A stretch of DNA of 27,834 nucleotides from a virus (Duplodnaviria > Caudoviricetes): the IMG/VR virus record IMGVR_UViG_3300025168_000504, positions 1 to 27,834 of that record, one strand, 5' to 3'. Made by a program: the position numbers and the translations under genes. This document shows positions 4,382 through 14,401 of the stretch, piece after piece. The notes under the pieces are model-generated. The model was not told where the DNA came from, did no database searches, and worked only from the letters and a program-made list of their open reading frames with translations. Position 1 is the stretch's first letter, and each line of letters begins with the position of its first letter.

Positions 4382-7300
4382 CTAGTCTTCTAACCGGCGG
4401 CGTAGCTTATCTTCACTGGCCGGACCCAGTAAAAGATCCATAGGTGAAGCACCTTCTACCTCATCAAGAAGGTTTCCGAGACCACCAGCAGTTCTGTTGG
4501 GCTGCACGGCAGGTATGCCCTTCAGTACTCCGAGCAACATAACGTAGGGGGCGAGCTTCTTAGCCCTGTCTGACCACACACGCTCGTCATCGGGAACCTT
4601 TGCATTTTCGTCTTCAACAAAAAGTTCCGGTACTTTTTTAGCTACACCAGATATAGCTTTGTCAATGGTTTCCCACGCAATAGTGCCTGCGCCCCCGCTG
4701 TATCCAAACCCACTTGCCCAGCCAGAAGACATCTCACGTAGCACTGGTATAGACCCTGTAAAAGTAGACAAACTTTCCCGTGCTATAAACTTTAGCATGG
4801 CGTGCTCTCTTTCTCCGGTTTTAAGATCTTCCTCTTCCCAATCAGGAAGCTTTCCCCGAACTAAGCCTACGCCTACAGAGGTTAAAGCCAGCAAGACAAA
4901 CATGCGCGTCGCAGCCCGTGCTATAGCAGCCGTAGGTCGCGTGGTTATATTGTCACGGAACTCTACGCCCATACCACGTTGCGTAGCGTACCACGCCGCA
5001 AACCATGTGTAGAACATGAGGAAGGGTTTCAGGTACGCCTTACGCTGAATGGGAGACAAGTCCTTCAAAGCTCCGGCAGATTGGCTGAGGCGAATTACTC
5101 GATCTGCGTATTTGACTGCGCGAGAAATGTCATTGGGGTTCGAGCGCAAAGATGTATTGTAAGCCGCTGTCCACACCGGCATATCCACGCTGTAGAACTG
5201 AACTTGCGCGATAGCCTGCATCGCAGTCCGCTGTATTACAGGTAGAACCGAGGTCTTGCCCTTGAGGTTGCGGAGGGCTTCATCCACGTTTTGATCGATA
5301 TTCTCACGCCTAAAGCGCATCTCGCCGGACACTTCCATAATCCACCGGGCGTGCTGTCCGTCCAAAGCCTTCAGACTACCAAAGGCCATATCTTTCTGCA
5401 GCATGGCAGCGTTCTTCGGGGTATAACCCACATCAGCAAGGATGCGGTCTTGACCGTTTATTATCCCTAGCGTCTGCATACCCAATGTAGTGTACGATGC
5501 GCCCAGAACGGCGACTGTCGTGTTTGTATATATCTGATTAAACAGCTCCCCCACTGCCCCGAGGTCTGTCGTATCGTTACTATTCACGGCCAATGCGGCA
5601 AGCCACGCCCGCAACTCTTTATAGTAGGCAGCGCCAACTTTAATCTCTACAGCAGCCTTAATATCTGGCTGGTTTAATATCTTGTTGCCGTTCTGCACTG
5701 CCTCGTAGTGTGTAATGAAATGAATGGTGTTCCGAAAACTGCTAGCTAGTTTGTCTATGTTCATAGTGATCGGCGCGGCATAGCCCGTTCGAGCTTTAGT
5801 CATCGAGCTGTTTACACTAGCCCGCCCAGCTTCGGCCTGCATCAACTGCAGAGCGTCTTTCTGCTCTGCATCAGCAGAGGCCCCCGCAACACTCTTGTCG
5901 TACATAAGCGGGAAGTATCCTCCCGTTACGTCCCCAAACTTAGTGGTAATCGTTCTTGGTTCTACACGGCCCGGAGATACGCCGTTTGTTTTGCGGTAAA
6001 TCGCATCAACCGCAGGCCACAATTTTTCTGCGTGCGCCCACACCGTTTTAACTAGGCTCCACTCTGCTTCTGTAAGCTGATCAAACGCGGTGTTCAATAT
6101 ATCTTCACTGATGTTCCACCCCGCACCCGTAACCTTGGTGTCTGCGTCTCCCCCCATACCCCGAATAAGCTTGTCGAGGTTACTTTCGTTTCCGGCGTTG
6201 AGGGCAAGCATGACAAGATTGCCGCGAGTGATACGCATACCCGGCTTACCTAGACCACCCAAAAGGCTAGGGTTTACAGCTTTTCCAAAACTCTTTTGCA
6301 CGCTCTTCGGCAGAGCAGCTACCAGCGCCCCGATTAAGTCGGACACTTCCAACTGCAATTCCTGAGATTGCACTGCCGCTGCACTAAACGGCTCGTACAG
6401 GGCTTGGTGCCACGGTCCCAGTACTGACCCATCCATTGCCTCTAGCAGCGCCTCGATTTTAAGTAATTGTCCGTCGATTGAGGCCATAAGAGATAGCGCT
6501 TTGAAACCGGTGATATTTTCTTCGGATGCGCTTTTGGCCCTGAACCTACTTACAAGAGTTTCTTTTCTTGCCGAAAGGGTGGTTAACAGCTCCGCTTTCA
6601 AAAGGCTTAGCTGTACGGCGTCTTCGCCTTTAAGGGCTCGCTTCGCATTGCGTCCTTGCGTGTCGTATCGTTTGATTACCTCGTGCAACTGCAAGAAGCG
6701 CAGATAGCTCATGCCCCTAATACTGTTATTTGGATTTGTTTCCGGGTCTAACAAGAAGTCGGGGACACTTAGCAATGCGCCGTCCTGCTCCTGCCTAGTT
6801 TCTATAAAGCTCTGTAACTCCGCTATCTCTGTTGTCCGCTCTGCTCTACCTGCAGCGCCGCCTTTAAAGTTAACGCTTTTAAGGATTGTCTTAATAACAT
6901 CTACATATTCGGCCTCGATAGACGGGAACTTCGCACCCGGTTTCGAGAATGTTTTCATATACGCGCTTTTCTTATCTACGTCGCGCTGTGCTTTAAGGGC
7001 TTCTGTAGCCATGTAGTGGTTAACAAGGCGGTGAAATTGGTGCTTGTAAGCCTCGGTGCGGTCGCCGCGCTTTAAGGCGGCACCTGCCAGATCAGCGTGT
7101 TTCTTCTCTGCTTGAATATATTTAACAGGGCGGATGTCTTTTGTAGCGGCTGCAAGGAGACTGTCTACGGCGTACTGGCGTACAAACTTTTGTTTAAACG
7201 CAGGCTCCGTTGTTCTCAAAGCCTGTAACTCTGCAGCTAGAACTTGAGCTGTCTTGTCTATATGAACGCTATCTACCGCTTCGTACATGCTGTCGAACGC

Positions 7301-10300
7301 GCCGTGGGTTTCCTCCATCTTGCTCTCGACTACTGCCTCTACCGCATCAGCGTAAGGCGCAACCTCGACAAGCTCTGCAATCATACTTATTACATCTTCG
7401 TAGCCAAAGGCAGCGGCTACTATGGCGGGGGCTTCGCCTCCCTCCATGTACAAGGTCTTACCAGCAACTTTAGGCATATCGGATAAGGAATACCCTTCAG
7501 CCTGCAAGACTTCTACCAGAGCAGTTTCGTCCATACGAGCAACTGCCTCGCCGTCAGGGAGAACAGATCCGTCAGCTAGGCCCAACTCCGTTATCGCGTA
7601 CATCAAACGGTAGACTGGTAGGGCCGCAACCTCCTGCCCTACTTCTGGTCGCAGTGCGTCTTTATTGTCTTTCCACCACTTTGTCAGCGTGCGCTTATGG
7701 TCTTGATTAGTTTTAGATAACTGCTTTGCTCGACGGGCCTCACCGGCTTCGGCAATGTTCTTCTGGTAGGCAGCAAACTGCGTCGGCGTCATACCGGCTT
7801 GCTCGGCGGTTTGTAGAAGAGGGGCCATACTGTATTGCCCCTCAACAATTGTGATCTCCTCATCCGAAGACAACATTCTATCTACGACACCCGTAACTTC
7901 TGGGGAAAATTTTACATCGAGGCCCGTAAAGCGCCTGTAAACGCTGCCTATCCACACTTTTAACTGAGAGAAGATGTTGCCAAGGGCGAGACTTGGAGCG
8001 CGTGCCGTAGCAAAGTAATCTTCTGCGCCGCGAGCAAATTGTTCGTGCATGGCGACGCTAAGGTATCGGCTGGGGCCTTCGCCGCGCAGCTCGCCGGATC
8101 TGGCATAAGCCGAGACTTGAGCCTCGGTCATCTGTTGCAGGGCAGCGACGCTGTCTTTGTCCTTGTCCTTCTTGGCGCGACGGACGGCCTCCTCGCGCAG
8201 CTCCAGAGGGCGGCTAGCCCACCAATCAGTGACGGTCTTAAAGTCTTGCTGGAAACCACCACCTACGGCGAGGGCGTCTGCCTTGAGCTGCTCCAGCCAG
8301 AAGTGACCACTTTCGTGCAGGAAGGTAGTCGGATCGGCCTTTTCAAATATCTGTATAAGGTTGACCGGGTTACCGTCCTGATCGTTAATTAAGTCTGAGG
8401 GGGTAAATCCGCCTCTGGGGCCTGCTGCTCCGCGCTGCTGCTCGAGGGCTGGTTGTTGTCCGCCTCGCTCGTACTGGTCGATGGCTGCGGCGACTTCTTG
8501 GGACGCTTGATCCCTGACATCACGATACCGCTGCCGAGCCACTCCCGCACTTCCTGCTGGGTCATTTCTGTCACTGGCATAGTCGTAATCCTTTTTCTCT
8601 GGGAACGCCGCCTGTAGTCGAGCGGCCTTAACATCATACTCTGAAGCAAGCGCATTATCAACAGCGTCTGCAAAACCACGCGGATCAACACCTTCTTCTA
8701 GGATTAGTGTCATCTGACCGTCTGTCGTTGACTGGCCGCCGATCTGAGGAAAACCCTCAATGCCGCGCAGGGTTTGATAGATCGCATCGATCTCCTGCAG
8801 GCTTTTGTCGCCAACCTGTATACGAACAGCCCCAGCCTCAAACGACCCCTCAAAAGCGTCGGCTGACAGGGCGACCATACTATCTTGGGACAGCACAAAA
8901 CCCACAGCATTAGCGACGGCAGCGGGGTCACCGGAAGTTAGACGCAGAGAGAACGACGGGTTTGTGTCTTCTAGGTAGCTACCGATTTGAGGAGATACTG
9001 AACCTTCAGCTTCTGCTGCTTCTAAGACAGAAGGCAGAACACTCTTCGATACGGTGTCGCTGATTGCGAGCTGCGCTGCAGGGGGAAGGGCGTTCCACCG
9101 GGCAGACAGCTCTACATTATTAGGGTCCGGCGCGACCTCGAATATAACGTCGCCGGCAAAGTCTACTTCTTGGAAGAGTTCTCGGCCATTATCTTGGACG
9201 CCAGCTTGCCCAGTCCCTGCAGTACCTTCGGGTCCGACAGATCCAGCATCTTGTCCAGAGACGGCTCCCTGTCCAGATCCTCCTGCTCCATCTCCTTCAA
9301 TTCCTTCGACTTCATATCCTTGGCTCCTAAATATCCGCGCAAACGTGGTGTCGTAACTCTCGTTGAGTGAGTTTGCTGTGACGACAGGGATGCCGTCCGC
9401 ATCAACCTCTAACTCGTCGCGCAGACCGCCCCATAATTCTTTCTCAGGATACCATAACAGAGCCTGCAAGTCAGCAGTAGTAACATCGATACCCCGCTCG
9501 GAAAGTATCTCGCGGGCGCGCTGCCCGACAGCCTCGACCTGCTTTCTCTGCGTGCCGTTAGCAATTTGGTCTAGGGGCGTAGACAGATTAGATTTGATAG
9601 CTTTTGCTGCTCGCGCCCATGTTGGCTGCAGCTCTGTGGGGATGTTGGCTGATCCATAGGTTTCCTGTAGCCGCTTATATTCCTTAGACCATGCCGTTAT
9701 TAAACGGTTTGAGTAAGCAAGCAGCGCGTCGTCCGTCTTTCCGTACTCAGCCTTCCAAGGCTCGGGGGCTTTAAGCCCTGCAAGATCAGACAACAGCGCC
9801 TTACCCTCAGAGACTTCTTTATTAAGACGGCGCGTCTCGGCGCTAAAATCTTTCTTTGTCTGGCCTTCAAGTTGTCCGGCGCTCTTATGCGCCTCAAGAG
9901 CGGCCTCGGAAGATGCTAGGTCAGATCGAGCCATCTCAATAAGGTCTGGCGAACCCTGCTCATTTGACCGGGATTTAGAGATTGCGGCTTTTAACCTGCG
10001 CCGCTGTGCGGGAACCGCGTCCGGCTGTCCAATACTCTTACCCGTTAGACGGCCCCAAGTGCGGCGCATCCACAAGTCGATTGTCAGCGGGTCAAAATTT
10101 CCGTTGAGGTTCTGCCAGAACCCATTGCCAATCTTAGGTCCGAGCGTCGAAGATCCGTAGACCACAGCATCCTTGGCTGTGTTACCCGGCGGGCTATACG
10201 GTATACCCGCAGCCTTCATCTCCACTTCCCACTCCCGCACTGTCTTACTAGCGCGGAACATGGCATCTAGCGCAGTCATACGCTCCGCAGAAGTGTCTCC

Positions 10301-13300
10301 GGGCATAGCATTAAGCATCGGGAGAAACTTCTCGAAGTTCTTGCCCATCGCTGCTTGCTTGTCTCCGGTCCCCCACTCCTTCTTCATGGAGTAGTCGCCG
10401 GATTTTATACTCTCCACCATTTCGGAGAAAGCAGTGTCTGCTGCTGTGGCGTTAAGAGACACACTCAGGTTTTGTGACGTCACCGCCATGATGTAGGTGA
10501 ACGCGAAGCGCGCGTTGCTCGACGTACCGAAGCCAGCCTCGGCTGCTGCCGCATCATCTTGCAGCATCGGGTATTTAATAGAAGCGACGTCCATTGCCCG
10601 GAGAACGGCTTCTGAGTACCAGTCAGCGGCGTTACCTGTACTCTCAAGGGCGAGCTGCGCCTCAGCAGCCGTAAGCCTGCCAAGCTGATTTATCTGCTCT
10701 TCGGATAATACCTCAGTGAAATCAATTATGGCGTCGCCGTCGAACTGATCCTCAAGCCACTTCGCAGCCTTCTCGTTAGTACCCAGCCGTTTAGTAGGCA
10801 TTGCCTCGGGTCGGTAGATCGGGTTGATCCGGGCCGCTTCATCCGCCGTAAGGCCGAGAGCTTCTGGATCTTGTACGGTAGCGCGTGCCTGCTCTAACGC
10901 ACCGTCAGGCGCGTCTTGGAACAGGATGTTGGGATCAGCCGGGTCAAACGCGCCACGGTTAAACGTGGACTTGATCTGCGTCGGCTCGAACGCGATTATC
11001 TCCTTAGCGCGTTCGTTTATAATGCCGTCATAACCCTGCGCTTTTAGTTCTTCTATTCTCGATTGCGGAATATACGATGTTTCTGCGCCATAGACCGGAG
11101 GTCTACGGCCCGCCCCGACGTTCTGAATGCGCTCTTTTATAGAACCCCAGAATGTCTGATCGGTAATGACCAAAGGGTTCTGAATACTTAGGTAAACAGG
11201 GTAAATCGCTGGGCCGGTGCCTTTTCTACCAGACCCCGTATAAGCCGAGGCATAATTTGAATCGTCGGTAAAATACATACCGGCTTGCCCGAACTGCCGT
11301 AAATACTCCTGACGCTCGGTAGAACCAGAAGCTGTAGGGTCGAACGCCTTAATGTCGTACTGGGTGCCGTGGTAGACGACCAGCGGATTGCCCTCGGCAT
11401 CGACGACTTTACTCTCACCAAACCATTCCTTGAAGCGCGGCGTCTGAGTGATGTCTCCGCCAGCCTCAGCAAGCTCTGCCTGTAGAACCTCTGTAGATAC
11501 GCCGAACTCTTTGGCTGACTGCTCAAGAAGGTCTTGGCGCAACTGGACTGGGTCGCCTTCTGTGACGTCGAACAGCTCGGCGCTGTCGAGAAGGGCCTGA
11601 TCCCAAATGACCATCTCGTTAATAGACTTCTTCTCATGCCCACTAATACCGGCTTCGACAAGACGCTCGGTTCCGTTTTCAAGCTCGCTGCGTATGCGCG
11701 AAATTAAGTTGCCGACCGACTCATTTGCGCCAATCTCAATACCGGCTTCGGCGGCTAAGTCAGCAAGCGTCTGCTGCATTTCTGAAGACAGGTCAGAAAC
11801 ACGAGACATAAAATCGACAACACCGGATAAACTTTCGGCGGGGAGGCGCGCTTCGTAGCTACGCCCACCGCGTGCAAACTGTGTTGCTTGATTTCCGCCT
11901 TCTGTTGAGAAGTAGATGCCAGCAGTTTCTCTGGGGCTTGTAGAAGTTGGGTCGTTGGCGCGGCCCGTGAATGCGAGATCTAACTTACCGCCTTCAAGAG
12001 CTGGGCCGCCGTGGCGGAGAGTAACGACAGAAGAGGAGCTGTCTTTGCCTCGTATTGTATCCCACACAGAACGAAGTCTGCCTTGTTCAAGCGCAGAGGA
12101 CTGTGCTGCGGGCTGGCCTCCCTGTATCCGCAAGTTATCGGCCTCAAACAGAGCAGCAGCGTCTACTGGCTCTCCGGTTTCGCGGGCAATGCGGACGGCT
12201 CGGGCGGTGTATCGGCTTGCAGTTAAGAGGGCAAAGGCGTCGGACTTATCTGCGTCGTATCGACCAGTAGCCTTGATCTGCTCTGCTACTAAAGAGCGAA
12301 TAGCCGCTGCGTCATCCGCAAGCTTGTCAAGAACAGGCTTAGTAAGTTCTGGGCCTAGCAGCTTGTCAACTTCCTCTTTTAGAAAGTCTTCAATACGTAC
12401 ACCTTCTTCGACGGCTCTCTCCGCCTCATCTGGTGTTAGAGCGCCTTCTTCAAAAGTGGTGTGGCGGATCAAAGAGTCAAAACCGTCTTTACCTAGAATA
12501 TGGCGTATAAACGTCTCAGCGCCTATCTGGACATCTTGACCTTCGGCTGCTGCAAGCCTTACTTCTTCCTGCGTAAGGCCCAGCGTGTCTATTGCGTCTC
12601 CATCCTGATTAAATATTAATAAGTTTTCGGCACTAATATAGACGTCTGGGGTTCCCTCAGCAGCCATTCTATCGGCTAGGATGCTGGCTGCGGTGTCTAA
12701 TTTTTCAATGGGGATACCTGAGACAATGCCCGACAACTCCTCGTTACCGCGCAACCACTCTTTAAGTCTTTTATCGTCGGCACGTTTAAGAACATCCGCA
12801 TGTCCAGCAACAGTTAGCTGTAGACTTGTCATAAGCGGGCCGCTGCCTAAGATACCTTCAAGAAGCGCCTCTTGGAAATCGTAATTTCCAGTAGCAAGCC
12901 GTCCTGCGTACAGTTCGCCGAGGGATTCTCCCAAAGTATTTACTCCGGTAGCCCTAGAAACATTCAAGGTCATAGACCGCGTAGGCTTTAGGGCAGCCGC
13001 AACTTTTATTCCCGTGAGGCTTGCAACGCTAATCGTAGCAGCGCGAACGCCTAGAAAGCGCTTCATTTCTTGGTTGGCAACGACAGAGGCGTCTGTCTCG
13101 TTTCGAGCAAATTCAGCTCTACCCGAAATTGTTCTAAGATCGATCTTTCCATCGGTTATGTCTAAGATAGATTTATAAAGCTTAGGGTCATTAATGTTTG
13201 CTAATTCTCGCAGCGCACCATGCGCCGTCATTAGAGAGAGCCCAACGGTGGGGGCACCTAGCGACGTTGCAACTAACCCAGCAGCTATGCCGGGGAAACT

Positions 13301-14401
13301 CTCCGCACTTGTAATCGTCGCCCACTTCGCCGTGGCGACTGGATTTGCAGCTAAATAGGCAAGCGTCTCTCCTTGATCAAAAAACCCATCTCCTTTAGGC
13401 ATACCGTCAATCAGAGCCTGCACGTCTGAAGGGTACTTGTAGTCTTTACCCGCTTTAATTATAGCTTTGGTGGAGATGTCAAACACCCGCACAGCTTCGG
13501 CTCTAAGCGCAGCGGCGTCTTCTGGGTCAGTAACGGACGCAGCTATTGCGGCGGCGGCACCGGCTCCCGTTTTGCCTACAACCTCAACGGGAAAAGCGAG
13601 CGGTTTAGCCACACCGAGTATTCCTAAATTTAAGCTCCAATTCTCAAATGCATCAACAAACGCCTCGCCCGGCTTACCGGCAAACTTCGCTCGGCTTGCA
13701 GCACTGCGTCTTTGAGCTTCGCCTACAACGCCCCAAAAAGTTTGAATAGAAGATTTGACTGGGGCTTCAATTACCGCATCTACAAAAGATACGTCTCGAC
13801 GGCGCGCAGCCAGAGCCTCTGCTGTACGGTCTTCAGGAGACATCATTATACGAAGGTACGTCGCTATCGAGCCCTCAGCAGAGAACATCAGTGGGATATC
13901 CCCACGCAAAATGGCCGCCTCTTCGGCGCTTTGCGCTAAACGCTCTCTAGTCGCGCTTTCAAGGGCCAAAGCTTTACGCAGCCCCGGGGTTCCTATAATA
14001 GATTTGAGTTGGTCGTCGGAATAACCTGATAAAACTTCTTTGCTAAGGCCGGAGTACGTCTTGATTGCGATCTTTTCGATGGCCGCACGATTGCTGTTTA
14101 TATCTGAAGTTAGGTCGAAGTTTTGGAGAACAGCTTCCGATAGTGGGTTTATCGTCAAACCTCGGTCAGCGGCTTCGGTATTGGGAAGTGCGCCACCCAT
14201 AAAATTCCATTGGCGCTCGGGAGCAACCACTGGCTCTTGCCCAGCCTTGTATGGCGCGACGCGACTAGGATCTAAGGGAGGGGGAGCTGGGGCTTCGGGA
14301 ATGGGTTTAGACGGGAAAACAATTCTAGGCTTTGGAGCCGCAACATCTGGCGCAACATCTGGCGCAACAGATGGCTCAGACGGAAAATTATAGACGGCCA
14401 T
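4382..14401 (-). CDS. Giant internal virion/DNA-ejection protein, polyvalent multi-domain protein (3339 aa)
   Basis: Third and largest gene of the ejection-protein block, between tail tube/GNAT and tail fibre (T7 gp16 position). Hydrophobic helices near aa 370-395; central effector cassettes; HESGH metallopeptidase; long helical C-terminus with GGYFPLMYD...TKARTG. Confidence 0.9.
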   Translation of the reverse strand: MAVYNFPSEPSVAPDVAPDVAAPKPRIVFPSKPIPEAPAPPPLDPSRVAPYKAGQEPVVAPERQWNFMGGALPNTEAADRGLTINPLSEAVLQNFDLTSDINSNRAAIEKIAIKTYSGLSKEVLSGYSDDQLKSIIGTPGLRKALALESATRERLAQSAEEAAILRGDIPLMFSAEGSIATYLRIMMSPEDRTAEALAARRRDVSFVDAVIEAPVKSSIQTFWGVVGEAQRRSAASRAKFAGKPGEAFVDAFENWSLNLGILGVAKPLAFPVEVVGKTGAGAAAAIAASVTDPEDAAALRAEAVRVFDISTKAIIKAGKDYKYPSDVQALIDGMPKGDGFFDQGETLAYLAANPVATAKWATITSAESFPGIAAGLVATSLGAPTVGLSLMTAHGALRELANINDPKLYKSILDITDGKIDLRTISGRAEFARNETDASVVANQEMKRFLGVRAATISVASLTGIKVAAALKPTRSMTLNVSRATGVNTLGESLGELYAGRLATGNYDFQEALLEGILGSGPLMTSLQLTVAGHADVLKRADDKRLKEWLRGNEELSGIVSGIPIEKLDTAASILADRMAAEGTPDVYISAENLLIFNQDGDAIDTLGLTQEEVRLAAAEGQDVQIGAETFIRHILGKDGFDSLIRHTTFEEGALTPDEAERAVEEGVRIEDFLKEEVDKLLGPELTKPVLDKLADDAAAIRSLVAEQIKATGRYDADKSDAFALLTASRYTARAVRIARETGEPVDAAALFEADNLRIQGGQPAAQSSALEQGRLRSVWDTIRGKDSSSSVVTLRHGGPALEGGKLDLAFTGRANDPTSTSPRETAGIYFSTEGGNQATQFARGGRSYEARLPAESLSGVVDFMSRVSDLSSEMQQTLADLAAEAGIEIGANESVGNLISRIRSELENGTERLVEAGISGHEKKSINEMVIWDQALLDSAELFDVTEGDPVQLRQDLLEQSAKEFGVSTEVLQAELAEAGGDITQTPRFKEWFGESKVVDAEGNPLVVYHGTQYDIKAFDPTASGSTERQEYLRQFGQAGMYFTDDSNYASAYTGSGRKGTGPAIYPVYLSIQNPLVITDQTFWGSIKERIQNVGAGRRPPVYGAETSYIPQSRIEELKAQGYDGIINERAKEIIAFEPTQIKSTFNRGAFDPADPNILFQDAPDGALEQARATVQDPEALGLTADEAARINPIYRPEAMPTKRLGTNEKAAKWLEDQFDGDAIIDFTEVLSEEQINQLGRLTAAEAQLALESTGNAADWYSEAVLRAMDVASIKYPMLQDDAAAAEAGFGTSSNARFAFTYIMAVTSQNLSVSLNATAADTAFSEMVESIKSGDYSMKKEWGTGDKQAAMGKNFEKFLPMLNAMPGDTSAERMTALDAMFRASKTVREWEVEMKAAGIPYSPPGNTAKDAVVYGSSTLGPKIGNGFWQNLNGNFDPLTIDLWMRRTWGRLTGKSIGQPDAVPAQRRRLKAAISKSRSNEQGSPDLIEMARSDLASSEAALEAHKSAGQLEGQTKKDFSAETRRLNKEVSEGKALLSDLAGLKAPEPWKAEYGKTDDALLAYSNRLITAWSKEYKRLQETYGSANIPTELQPTWARAAKAIKSNLSTPLDQIANGTQRKQVEAVGQRAREILSERGIDVTTADLQALLWYPEKELWGGLRDELEVDADGIPVVTANSLNESYDTTFARIFRSQGYEVEGIEGDGAGGSGQGAVSGQDAGSVGPEGTAGTGQAGVQDNGRELFQEVDFAGDVIFEVAPDPNNVELSARWNALPPAAQLAISDTVSKSVLPSVLEAAEAEGSVSPQIGSYLEDTNPSFSLRLTSGDPAAVANAVGFVLSQDSMVALSADAFEGSFEAGAVRIQVGDKSLQEIDAIYQTLRGIEGFPQIGGQSTTDGQMTLILEEGVDPRGFADAVDNALASEYDVKAARLQAAFPEKKDYDYASDRNDPAGSAGVARQRYRDVRDQASQEVAAAIDQYERGGQQPALEQQRGAAGPRGGFTPSDLINDQDGNPVNLIQIFEKADPTTFLHESGHFWLEQLKADALAVGGGFQQDFKTVTDWWASRPLELREEAVRRAKKDKDKDSVAALQQMTEAQVSAYARSGELRGEGPSRYLSVAMHEQFARGAEDYFATARAPSLALGNIFSQLKVWIGSVYRRFTGLDVKFSPEVTGVVDRMLSSDEEITIVEGQYSMAPLLQTAEQAGMTPTQFAAYQKNIAEAGEARRAKQLSKTNQDHKRTLTKWWKDNKDALRPEVGQEVAALPVYRLMYAITELGLADGSVLPDGEAVARMDETALVEVLQAEGYSLSDMPKVAGKTLYMEGGEAPAIVAAAFGYEDVISMIAELVEVAPYADAVEAVVESKMEETHGAFDSMYEAVDSVHIDKTAQVLAAELQALRTTEPAFKQKFVRQYAVDSLLAAATKDIRPVKYIQAEKKHADLAGAALKRGDRTEAYKHQFHRLVNHYMATEALKAQRDVDKKSAYMKTFSKPGAKFPSIEAEYVDVIKTILKSVNFKGGAAGRAERTTEIAELQSFIETRQEQDGALLSVPDFLLDPETNPNNSIRGMSYLRFLQLHEVIKRYDTQGRNAKRALKGEDAVQLSLLKAELLTTLSARKETLVSRFRAKSASEENITGFKALSLMASIDGQLLKIEALLEAMDGSVLGPWHQALYEPFSAAAVQSQELQLEVSDLIGALVAALPKSVQKSFGKAVNPSLLGGLGKPGMRITRGNLVMLALNAGNESNLDKLIRGMGGDADTKVTGAGWNISEDILNTAFDQLTEAEWSLVKTVWAHAEKLWPAVDAIYRKTNGVSPGRVEPRTITTKFGDVTGGYFPLMYDKSVAGASADAEQKDALQLMQAEAGRASVNSSMTKARTGYAAPITMNIDKLASSFRNTIHFITHYEAVQNGNKILNQPDIKAAVEIKVGAAYYKELRAWLAALAVNSNDTTDLGAVGELFNQIYTNTTVAVLGASYTTLGMQTLGIINGQDRILADVGYTPKNAAMLQKDMAFGSLKALDGQHARWIMEVSGEMRFRRENIDQNVDEALRNLKGKTSVLPVIQRTAMQAIAQVQFYSVDMPVWTAAYNTSLRSNPNDISRAVKYADRVIRLSQSAGALKDLSPIQRKAYLKPFLMFYTWFAAWYATQRGMGVEFRDNITTRPTAAIARAATRMFVLLALTSVGVGLVRGKLPDWEEEDLKTGEREHAMLKFIARESLSTFTGSIPVLREMSSGWASGFGYSGGAGTIAWETIDKAISGVAKKVPELFVEDENAKVPDDERVWSDRAKKLAPYVMLLGVLKGIPAVQPNRTAGGLGNLLDEVEGASPMDLLLGPASEDKLRRRLED
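7850..8437 (-). other. Zincin-like HExxH metallopeptidase domain within the giant protein (MPTase-like)
   Basis: RGGF...IQIFEKADPTTFLHESGH (H2029-H2033, nt 8303-8317), with a downstream HEQFARGAEDY (E2120 as candidate third ligand). Boundaries approximate. Confidence 0.75.
8389..8580 (-). CDS. Overprinted small ORF (63 aa) in the +1 frame of the giant gene
   Basis: AAAAAGGA SD, with AAGGA 8 nt before ATG 8580. Product MPVTEMTQQEVREWLGSGIVMSGIKRPKKSPQP... has a protein-like N-terminal half. Located at the 3' end of cassette 4. Confidence 0.6.
   Translation of the reverse strand: MPVTEMTQQEVREWLGSGIVMSGIKRPKKSPQPSTSTSEADNNQPSSSSAEQQAPEADLPPQT
8438..9169 (-). other. Cassette 4 of the giant protein (aa 1745-1988), uncharacterised alpha/beta domain, possibly SAM-lyase-like
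   Basis: Bounded by ELFQ and ALEQ. Motif IGSYLEDTNPSF...AVGFVLSQDSMV loosely recalls the G-x-Y...Q-D-x-hydrophobic pattern of phage T3-type SAM lyases. Confidence 0.35.
9163..9315 (-). CDS. Overprinted small ORF (50 aa) in the +1 frame of the giant gene
   Basis: TAGGAG SD, with AGGAG at 9324-9328, 8 nt before ATG 9315. Product MKSKELKEMEQEDLDREPSLDKMLDLSDPKVLQGLGKLASKIMAENSSKK. The host frame here becomes a Gly-rich linker, and the stop falls just after the LFQ boundary. Confidence 0.65.
   Translation of the reverse strand: MKSKELKEMEQEDLDREPSLDKMLDLSDPKVLQGLGKLASKIMAENSSKK
9170..10888 (-). other. Cassette 3 of the giant protein (aa 1172-1744), helix-hairpin-helix DNA-glycosylase-like domain
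   Basis: Ordered motifs DWYS, AVTSQNLSVSLN, LGPKIGNGFWQNL, PLTIDLWM, DLQALLW. GPK...TIDxW...QAxxW mirrors the HhH-GPD pattern (HhH Lys, then conserved Asp). Confidence 0.55.
10916..11518 (-). other. Cassette 2 of the giant protein (aa 962-1162), ART-PolyVal-type ADP-ribosyltransferase domain
   Basis: FKEWFGESKVVDAEGNPLVVYHGT...GMYFT...YASAY...IYPVYLSIQNPL...GYDGII...EIIAFEPTQIKS, the typical signature of this family. Confidence 0.85.
11534..12082 (-). other. Cassette 1 of the giant protein (aa 774-956), divergent ADP-ribosyltransferase-like domain
   Basis: TLRHGG...AGIYFS...ATQFA...SYEARL...AGISGH...NEMVIWD has the same motif order (H-G, G-x-Y-F, G-x-x-G, E-x-V-x-W/F) as cassette 2. Confidence 0.65.
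14341..14369 (-). repeat. 12-nt direct repeat x2.4 encoding VAPDVAPDVA at the N-terminus of the giant protein
   Basis: caacatctggcg caacatctggcg caaca on the + strand. Confidence 0.7.

Follow-up and report, generated by a model that had tools for sequence, protein, structure and literature searches.

Our comparative analysis of a 27,834-nucleotide viral DNA record (Caudoviricetes; IMG/VR IMGVR_UViG_3300025168_000504; the whole stretch is called the window below) revealed two small genes, A and B, which are nested out of frame in the gene for a 3339-aa polyvalent protein and lie at the ends of two of its predicted enzyme cassettes. Both genes are conserved together with their cassettes in related phages, and fused or truncated copies that lack the enzymes were found in bacterial loci that look like integrated islands. 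Judging from these comparisons, we consider it probable (about 0.7) that A and B encode cognate inhibitors of effectors injected with the virion, and that phage satellites have captured them. The features concerned are the following.

4382..14401, minus strand: host gene (open reading frame (ORF) call) for the 3339-aa polyvalent protein, in the slot that podovirus-type genomes use for their largest ejection protein
9317..10912, minus strand: cassette 3 domain, predicted structure with the fold of the HhH-GPD glycosylase superfamily, DUF7178-like
9163..9315, minus strand: nested gene A, 50 aa, +1 frame, host residues 1696-1747, candidate inhibitor of cassette 3
9324..9328, minus strand: AGGAG, Shine-Dalgarno (SD)-like sequence of A
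8579..9166, minus strand: cassette 4 domain, predicted structure with two ferredoxin-like domains, the first like an S-adenosylmethionine (SAM) lyase
8389..8580, minus strand: nested gene B, 63 aa, +1 frame, host residues 1941-2005, candidate inhibitor of cassette 4
8589..8594, minus strand: AAAGGA, SD-like sequence of B

The two genes had been proposed from the letters of the window (the sequence-only reading), and their description agrees with what we found in the sequence. Both are minus-strand ORFs in frame +1 of 4382..14401. Each begins at a TAT-G in the frame of the host, 45-48 codons ahead of the LFQ/LEQ motif, and is preceded by an SD-like sequence ending 8 nt before the ATG. A resemblance to the start of the cement gene had also been pointed out; compared at the level of translation only, the cement-gene context is consistent with RKDYPM. 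In-frame ATGs that give longer ORFs exist in the window at 9402 (A) and 8655 (B), and the starts at 9315 and 8580 are the conserved ones because homologues have +1 stops upstream of them. The argument that the same geometry is unlikely to occur twice by chance did not stand on the window alone: the host gene has 63 ATGs in the +1 frame versus 7 in the +2 frame, and since 16 of its +1-frame ATG ORFs reach at least 25 aa, two such ORFs are not beyond chance. It is the counts in homologous sequences, not the window alone, that settle the status of A and B as genes.

For these counts, we took the best 80 of 125 viral loci with cassette 3 and the best 80 of 99 with cassette 4; once redundancy had been removed, 60 and 63 loci with sufficient DNA downstream remained, L144 being excluded because it is truncated. 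In 56/60 cassette-3 and 61/63 cassette-4 loci, the domain is followed by the start of a +1-frame ATG ORF that is 40 aa or longer, compared with 2 and 0 in the +2 control frame; control windows of equal size inside the domains contained one in 6-10 of 58-60 (cassette 3) and 0-13 of 63 (cassette 4). In L140, one of the two cassette-4 loci without such an ORF, a start is located 15 codons further upstream. When an SD was demanded as well, the counts were 48/60 and 54/63. An SD of at least 4 nt precedes 47 of the 56 homologous A starts and 49 of the 55 B starts that use exactly this codon; among 622 control ATGs of the +1 frame, the share is 6.4%. Moreover, the tyrosine codon that creates the ATG of B is TAT in 55 and TAC in 2 sequences against a background of 121 TAT to 166 TAC (Fisher p 4e-16), and the tyrosine two codons upstream is TAC in 49 sequences.

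Substitution patterns point in the same direction. Ratios of nonsynonymous to synonymous polymorphism (pN/pS) in the A region were 0.34 for the +1 frame versus 1.92 for the host frame (38 codons, 7 close sequences), with the order inverted in the preceding domain (1.11 and 0.23). For B, the values were 0.60 versus 1.06 (25 sequences), and 1.12-1.19 versus 0.38-0.44 in the domain control. The density of +1 stops falls to 0.004 (A) and 0.0008 (B) per codon from 0.046 and 0.049 in the domains, while that in the +2 frame is unchanged. Thus the SD, the ATG and the open frame, whose conservation the sequence-only reading had made a test of its proposal, are kept in homologous cassettes and are under purifying selection. 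We conclude from these comparisons that A and B are protein-coding genes and that selection moves from the host frame to the +1 frame where they lie. The host linker under A is the shadow cast by the nested gene and is unconstrained, and the host frame beneath B retains some conservation, including residues R218 and A221. Within B itself the first ~30 residues are conserved, and its tail is of low complexity. Neither the nested genes nor cassettes 3 and 4 had an accepted match in Pfam or PHROGs; B gave two weak PHROG rows, which were rejected (E above 0.05). Relatives on contigs from RNA runs (X18/X19), some spanning the B region alone, were not used, as contigs can show neither transcription nor translation.

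The nested genes are linked to the type of cassette that they follow. A comes after cassette 3 and B after cassette 4, irrespective of the neighbouring cassette, and each nested family is tied to one cassette type across 30-98% identity; in the phage loci examined, neither A nor B was seen without its own cassette. The host frame stops within 107 codons of the WYPEK motif in 13 of the 60 cassette-3 loci, 11 of which keep the small ORF. There it often extends beyond the host stop, which gives an ordinary overlapping layout of two genes, toxin then small gene. As in polymorphic toxin-immunity systems, a type-specific small gene lies directly downstream of the effector domain. The cassettes are internal in the window and C-terminal in only 13/60 cassette-3 homologues, so that the C-terminal position of polymorphic toxins is not the rule here.

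Nested genes also accompany other cassettes. Across 204,258 host codons, 197 ORFs with both SD and ATG lie in the +1 and 7 in the +2 frame. Zeta-like kinase cassettes have a nested gene in 5/6 cases, and RelA/SpoT-like cassettes an antisense one in 4/8. The antisense genes, which have strong SDs and end the RelA/SpoT-like cassettes (L187:4889-5119(-), L188:7556-7792(-), L129, L132, L136), form two families, both also present in the islands described below. Two further families follow zincin (HExxH) metallopeptidase cassettes (L039, L057, L079, L053, L063, L091, L093; L154-L178). Another +1 family, with the motif IRAEALRRL, overlaps the start of a cassette (L060:280ff, L162 at +61 codons, L111 at +70 codons) and fuses to A or B if adjacent to them. 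Distant cassette-4-like domains are common in polyvalent proteins, and L168 (-288 codons) has a tandem pair, each with its own related nested gene. The two cassettes upstream of cassette 3 in the window differ in this respect.

11522..12079, minus strand: cassette 1, ADP-ribosyltransferase (ART)-like by eye (H..G.YF motif), no Pfam match; no nested gene seen
10913..11521, minus strand: cassette 2, ART-PolyVal ADP-ribosyltransferase (PF18760, E 1.8e-28); no nested gene at its end

The sequence-only reading had noted no equivalent ORF at the ends of the ART cassettes, and this holds in relatives, where 0/16 homologous ART-PolyVal ends have a nested ORF with SD and ATG. A 149-aa +1-frame ORF of the window (11188..11637, minus strand), which spans the junction of cassettes 1 and 2 without a clear SD and is probably due to chance, lies outside the reach of this SD-requiring test.

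The second line of evidence comes from copies of A and B outside phages. A profile search with B returned 37 proteins, 19 of which are B fused straight to A with no enzyme between them, 3 of these from the window's own clade. A wider protein search gave 261 clusters, with a second nested module in 11 of 52 long proteins examined (protein sequences only). Triple fusions of B, an unknown part and A as well as tandem B-B proteins also occur (P0098, P0204, P0103, P0226), and a stand-alone B of the window's clade (P0014) is recorded on a contig of 847 kb that may be a chromosome of a marine bacterium. Metagenome and genome scans were aimed at the freshwater clade. The metagenome scan found nine loci, four of them unfused and of phage type (two short) and five (L191-L195) with a fusion or with A and a stub of B; a genome-wide scan added a sixth orphan locus, L201, in a Limnohabitans metagenome-assembled genome (MAG). 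B and A are fused into one ORF in L191-L193 and L201, and A is accompanied by a stub of B in L194 and L195. In all six, the frame of the small genes is open, the host frame is interrupted by 1-3 stops and the two enzyme domains have been deleted; of cassette 4, no more than the final 65 residues remain in L191-L195, and of cassette 3 nothing. Small genes without their cognate effector, arrayed on a mobile element, constitute an orphan-immunity pattern.

All six loci look like integrated islands, and L201 is a complete satellite-like element. The latter (L201/L218) extends over ~8.8 kb from tRNA-Asp to a 14-bp repeat of the tRNA end and encodes an integrase, AlpA and a primase, with no capsid gene seen. 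The MAG itself, for which completeness is not given, yielded no match to either cassette 3 or cassette 4. This full set of satellite genes, with the att repeat, is present in L201 only, and the other five loci show it in part: L191 is located behind lysC, tRNA-Ser and an integrase, primase genes adjoin L192, L194 and L195, and L193 has the same backbone. The island cargo is pieced together from patches of 70-390 bp, a mosaic in which most are 72-97% identical to polyvalent genes of phages, and the main patches coincide with nested genes, namely B, A and the antisense genes of RelA/SpoT-like cassettes. For a few patches that are shorter or come from the MuF-C region, no corresponding nested ORF was found. 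The island also holds a peptide that by eye resembles the zeta-follower family. Fragments of MuF-C domains of phage polyvalent origin lie within islands at L191:4345-5721 and L194:2753-3088. In addition, an island gene of L201 (9843-10442(-)) ends in a further portable module, a peptide related to the tail of a nested gene in Limnohabitans phage DC33 and, by eye, to the L075 and L079 tails. In 11 other Limnohabitans genomes with related island pieces, no nested-family peptide was found in the 1.5-kb flanks.

DC33 is described in its paper as an isolated, lytic, short-tailed Limnohabitans phage with an icosahedral head (PMC12195039). It carries a cassette-3 homologue followed by an unannotated 71-aa +1 ORF, the tail of which matches the peptide of the L201 element (39% over 46-49 aa, E 1e-7). 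Its giant gene contains a second unannotated +1 ORF of 62 aa (locus 11030), and its record (L203; PQ492659.1) is filed under Inoviridae despite the icosahedral head and short tail.

The enzymes next to the nested genes were assigned from predicted structures. The AlphaFold2 model of cassette 3 (pLDDT 93.5) aligned in VIA-align with QNG1, Ogg, NTHL1, MagIII, ROS1, MIG and EndoIII at Z 7.8-9.8 over 173-223 residues, values under the tool's caution level for helical proteins. Among the 50 VIA rows listed, 11 are whole-domain matches to the HhH-GPD superfamily and the remainder are short helical hairpins. Foldseek against the PDB and profile searches of solved structures found nothing for cassette 3; its match in the ESM Atlas is DUF7178. 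Lys260 (10133..10135) and Asp279 (10076..10078) are invariant in 56/56 sequences, so that an HhH lysine and a downstream aspartate are present; the two are 19 residues apart, which we take to be the spacing of the catalytic pair in bifunctional glycosylases. Cassette 3 is therefore predicted to be a base-excision enzyme, a DNA glycosylase of the HhH-GPD type.

Cassette 4 was modelled as a monomer with two ferredoxin-like domains (pLDDT 92). VIA gave Z 7.2/7.1/6.5 to 7ock, 6zm9 and 9gab (Z 6.5-7.2 for T3 SAMase, Svi3-3 and a SAM-AMP lyase), values that do not exceed those of unrelated rows; resistance-nodulation-division (RND) pump rows topping the list were read as common tandem ferredoxin-like arrangements. 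Phage SAMases are among its weak BFVD matches, all ESM Atlas rows were below 0.9, Foldseek against the PDB returned generic ferredoxin folds, and profile searches of solved structures gave no match. SAM lyases are trimers whose active sites lie at the interfaces. By eye, G62/Y64/Q94/D95/S96 mirror G56/Y58/Q104/E105/S106 of Svi3-3 (PMC7877911). According to the same paper, SAM lyases are toxic upon expression and the E69Q exchange lowers the activity of Svi3-3 4500-fold. The invariant E10 and D14 of cassette 4 might stand in for a glutamate that is missing at this position. We regard cassette 4 as SAM-lyase-like, a likeness of predicted fold that does not establish membership in the SAM lyases.

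The genome setting suggests how these enzymes may reach a cell. The window carries terminase, head-tail adaptor, capsid, tail and internal virion protein genes (PHROG matches), and the genes upstream of the host gene match families from this set (internal virion protein, tail, head-tail adaptor, capsid and terminase). Both the N- and C-terminal parts of the host protein match phrog_9880, and its middle consists of swappable cassettes. ART-PolyVal is the sole Pfam match within it, and the Pfam scan found no N-terminal MuF domain. Several conflict domains, one of them listed for polyvalent proteins, are thus combined in a single large protein among virion genes. From the gene order and from work on polyvalent proteins (PMC5512222), we infer that the host protein sits in the virion and is delivered with it.

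The sequence-only reading had interpreted each cassette as a toxin-plus-cognate-inhibitor unit. What stands of this are real, conserved and cassette-linked nested genes with SDs, together with orphan copies in islands; the strict co-occurrence with cassettes 3 and 4 that it called for does not hold, as the small genes also occur without their cassette. We favour a cognate inhibitor acting in trans as the simplest explanation because the small gene tracks the enzyme type, follows known toxin domains and outlives the enzyme in third parties. Zeta toxin and its epsilon antidote form such a pair. RelA/SpoT and zeta are toxin families with protein antidotes, with MuF-Apk2/IapK as an example (PMC12226406). 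According to this model, the small protein would bind and block its own cassette, the predicted DNA glycosylase for A and the SAM-lyase-like domain for B, during synthesis of the giant protein, and would guard phage DNA and the producing cell at the late stage of infection. The giant protein would then be packaged and reach the next cell by injection, leaving the small one behind. Nesting would leave the giant frame open, so that cassette and antidote could travel as a unit and several could be stacked; the glycine/arginine-rich "linker" would be the shadow of the nested gene. Satellite-like islands appear to have taken the small genes minus the enzymes and stitched them into arrays, most likely neutralising effectors that arrive with the phage particle. 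Blocking the injected enzymes would benefit a satellite that rides in such a virion or encounters one.

Several observations weigh against this interpretation. The ART cassettes represent a common toxin class without nested genes, zincin peptidase cassettes are followed by such genes too, and one nested family overlaps the start of the next cassette instead of the end of the previous one. Linkage by itself would make domain and peptide diverge together (Spearman 0.71, 0.34). The SAM-lyase Z of ~7 is in the range of common folds and below the RND pump rows at 7.5-8.3, and in our alignment the column of the catalytic glutamate holds Asn in 51, Ser in 9 and Thr in 1 of 61 sequences (Asn69 in the window). 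Orphans are rare (1/401 family genomes and 1/139 genus genomes searched), five of the six loci stand under one assembly prefix, several loci have stops in common by descent, and they were found with an intact-peptide query, which favours open frames. Their pN/pS of 0.30 and 0.28 may come from the phage donors. The marine B-A fusions are known as protein sequences, and a viral scan with P0015 gave only unfused loci.

A tight tie to cassette type is also what one would see if the small proteins were cassette-specific chaperones or loading adaptors, helping in folding or in packaging for tail passage, with the satellite copies as decoys that disturb assembly of the helper virion. Such a role would fit zincin cassettes, which are not obviously self-toxic, and phage interference by satellites is known (PMC10803314). 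We nevertheless regard it as unlikely: the small gene is also kept behind cassettes that form the C-terminal domain of far shorter proteins, the ART cassettes of the same protein do without one, and the islands gather peptides of several unrelated toxin-type cassettes, which is a better fit to antidote collecting. Survival in islands without the cassette implies an ability to act in trans, and phage genomes contain many small independent genes, so that A and B could instead be effectors or regulators of host targets in their own right, such as anti-defence or superinfection factors, merely co-travelling with cassette DNA. The attachment of each family to one cassette type across that range of identities and different neighbours, and the lack of any A or B without its own cassette in the phage loci examined, make this improbable as well. 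That the ORFs are non-functional linker shadows or purely cis-acting signals, and the island patches recombination debris, seems very improbable. The +1 frame is rich in ATGs and has other chance ORFs, and the conserved R218 and A221 show some constraint on the host frame under B; this reading is opposed by the pN/pS inversion, the loss of +1 stops, the TAT bias, the SD enrichment and islands that keep the +1 frame open while the host frame breaks.

The arrangement thus appears to work like a polymorphic toxin-immunity pair, with islands comparable to orphan-immunity arrays on satellite-like elements, and is neither a MuF toxin nor a C-terminal polymorphic toxin. In phage lambda, the +1 frame of the Rz gene contains the smaller gene Rz1, and the two products of this fixed lysis pair have been proposed to interact. 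The nested genes described here share the +1 embedding; unlike Rz1, they are modular, one per cassette, and lie in linkers. Cassette 3 resembles HhH-GPD glycosylases in fold and in the spacing of its Lys/Asp pair, with no sequence-level match to solved structures. Cassette 4 shares with phage SAM lyases (T3 SAMase, Svi3-3; PMC7877911) the fold and the pattern of Gly, Tyr, Gln, acid and Ser; unlike them, it has no Glu and an extra domain, and again no solved structure matches at the level of sequence. In the MuF polymorphic toxins of temperate phages, which have immunity genes downstream (PMC5576092; Apk2/IapK, PMC12226406), a virion-associated protein likewise contains a toxin-type enzyme domain that is followed directly by a small cognate gene, and RelA/SpoT-type domains are common to related loci. 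In contrast to these, the cassettes here are internal and stacked in a 3339-aa frame with the small gene nested out of frame or antisense, the host protein has no MuF N-terminal domain, and neutralisation is predicted.

The host protein is like the phage-type polyvalent proteins described by Iyer et al. 2017 (PMC5512222), giant multi-cassette proteins with ART-PolyVal among virion genes, and its relatives carry zincin, InPase, RelA/SpoT, zeta and MuF-C domains as these do. The running text of that paper contains neither "overlap", "linker" nor "glycosylase", and the passages covered name no immunity gene for polyvalent proteins. Arrays of immunity-like genes without effectors on mobile elements are known as acquired interbacterial defence (AID) and recombinase-associated AID (rAID) systems (10.1101/471110). 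AID counters effectors of the type VI secretion system in Bacteroidales, whereas here the donors are cassettes of phage virion proteins, the carriers are satellite-like islands of Betaproteobacteria, the genes have been formed by fusion or by the stitching of out-of-frame patches, and protection would be the presumed outcome. Phage-inducible chromosomal minimalist islands (PICMI) and related phage-inducible chromosomal islands (PICI) (PMC10803314) are small integrated elements with integrase, AlpA, primase and accessory cargo and no capsid gene seen, as is L201; PICMI lie beside fis in Vibrionaceae, and L201 lies at a tRNA end in Limnohabitans and derives its cargo from nested phage genes. In the literature covered, mostly at abstract level and without subscription papers and supplements, we found no description of nested immunity genes in polyvalent virion proteins or of their capture by satellites. 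Within the clade of freshwater phages, a ferritin-like gene (by eye) lies between two polyvalent genes (L185:6333-6830, L186:6426-6923, L187:2984-3472).

Overall, we lean somewhat towards the wider picture suggested by these sequences, in which podovirus-type phages inject stacked toxic enzymes with hidden antidotes, satellites harvest the antidotes into fused arrays as acquired immunity to virion-delivered effectors, for themselves or their host, and self-toxic cassettes can be read from sequence. Phage DC33 and its host form a cultured pair, which makes the hypothesis testable. Polyvalent proteins of virions occur widely and are largely unexplained, and genes nested within them are missed by gene callers. 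Should the nested genes prove to be antidotes, every cassette could be cloned and assayed with its own off-switch, and the presence of a nested gene would flag cassettes that are harmful to the producing cell. They would also be a source of small natural inhibitors of glycosylase-fold and SAM-lyase-fold enzymes, and the island arrays would indicate an unrecognised layer of conflict between phages, satellites and their hosts.

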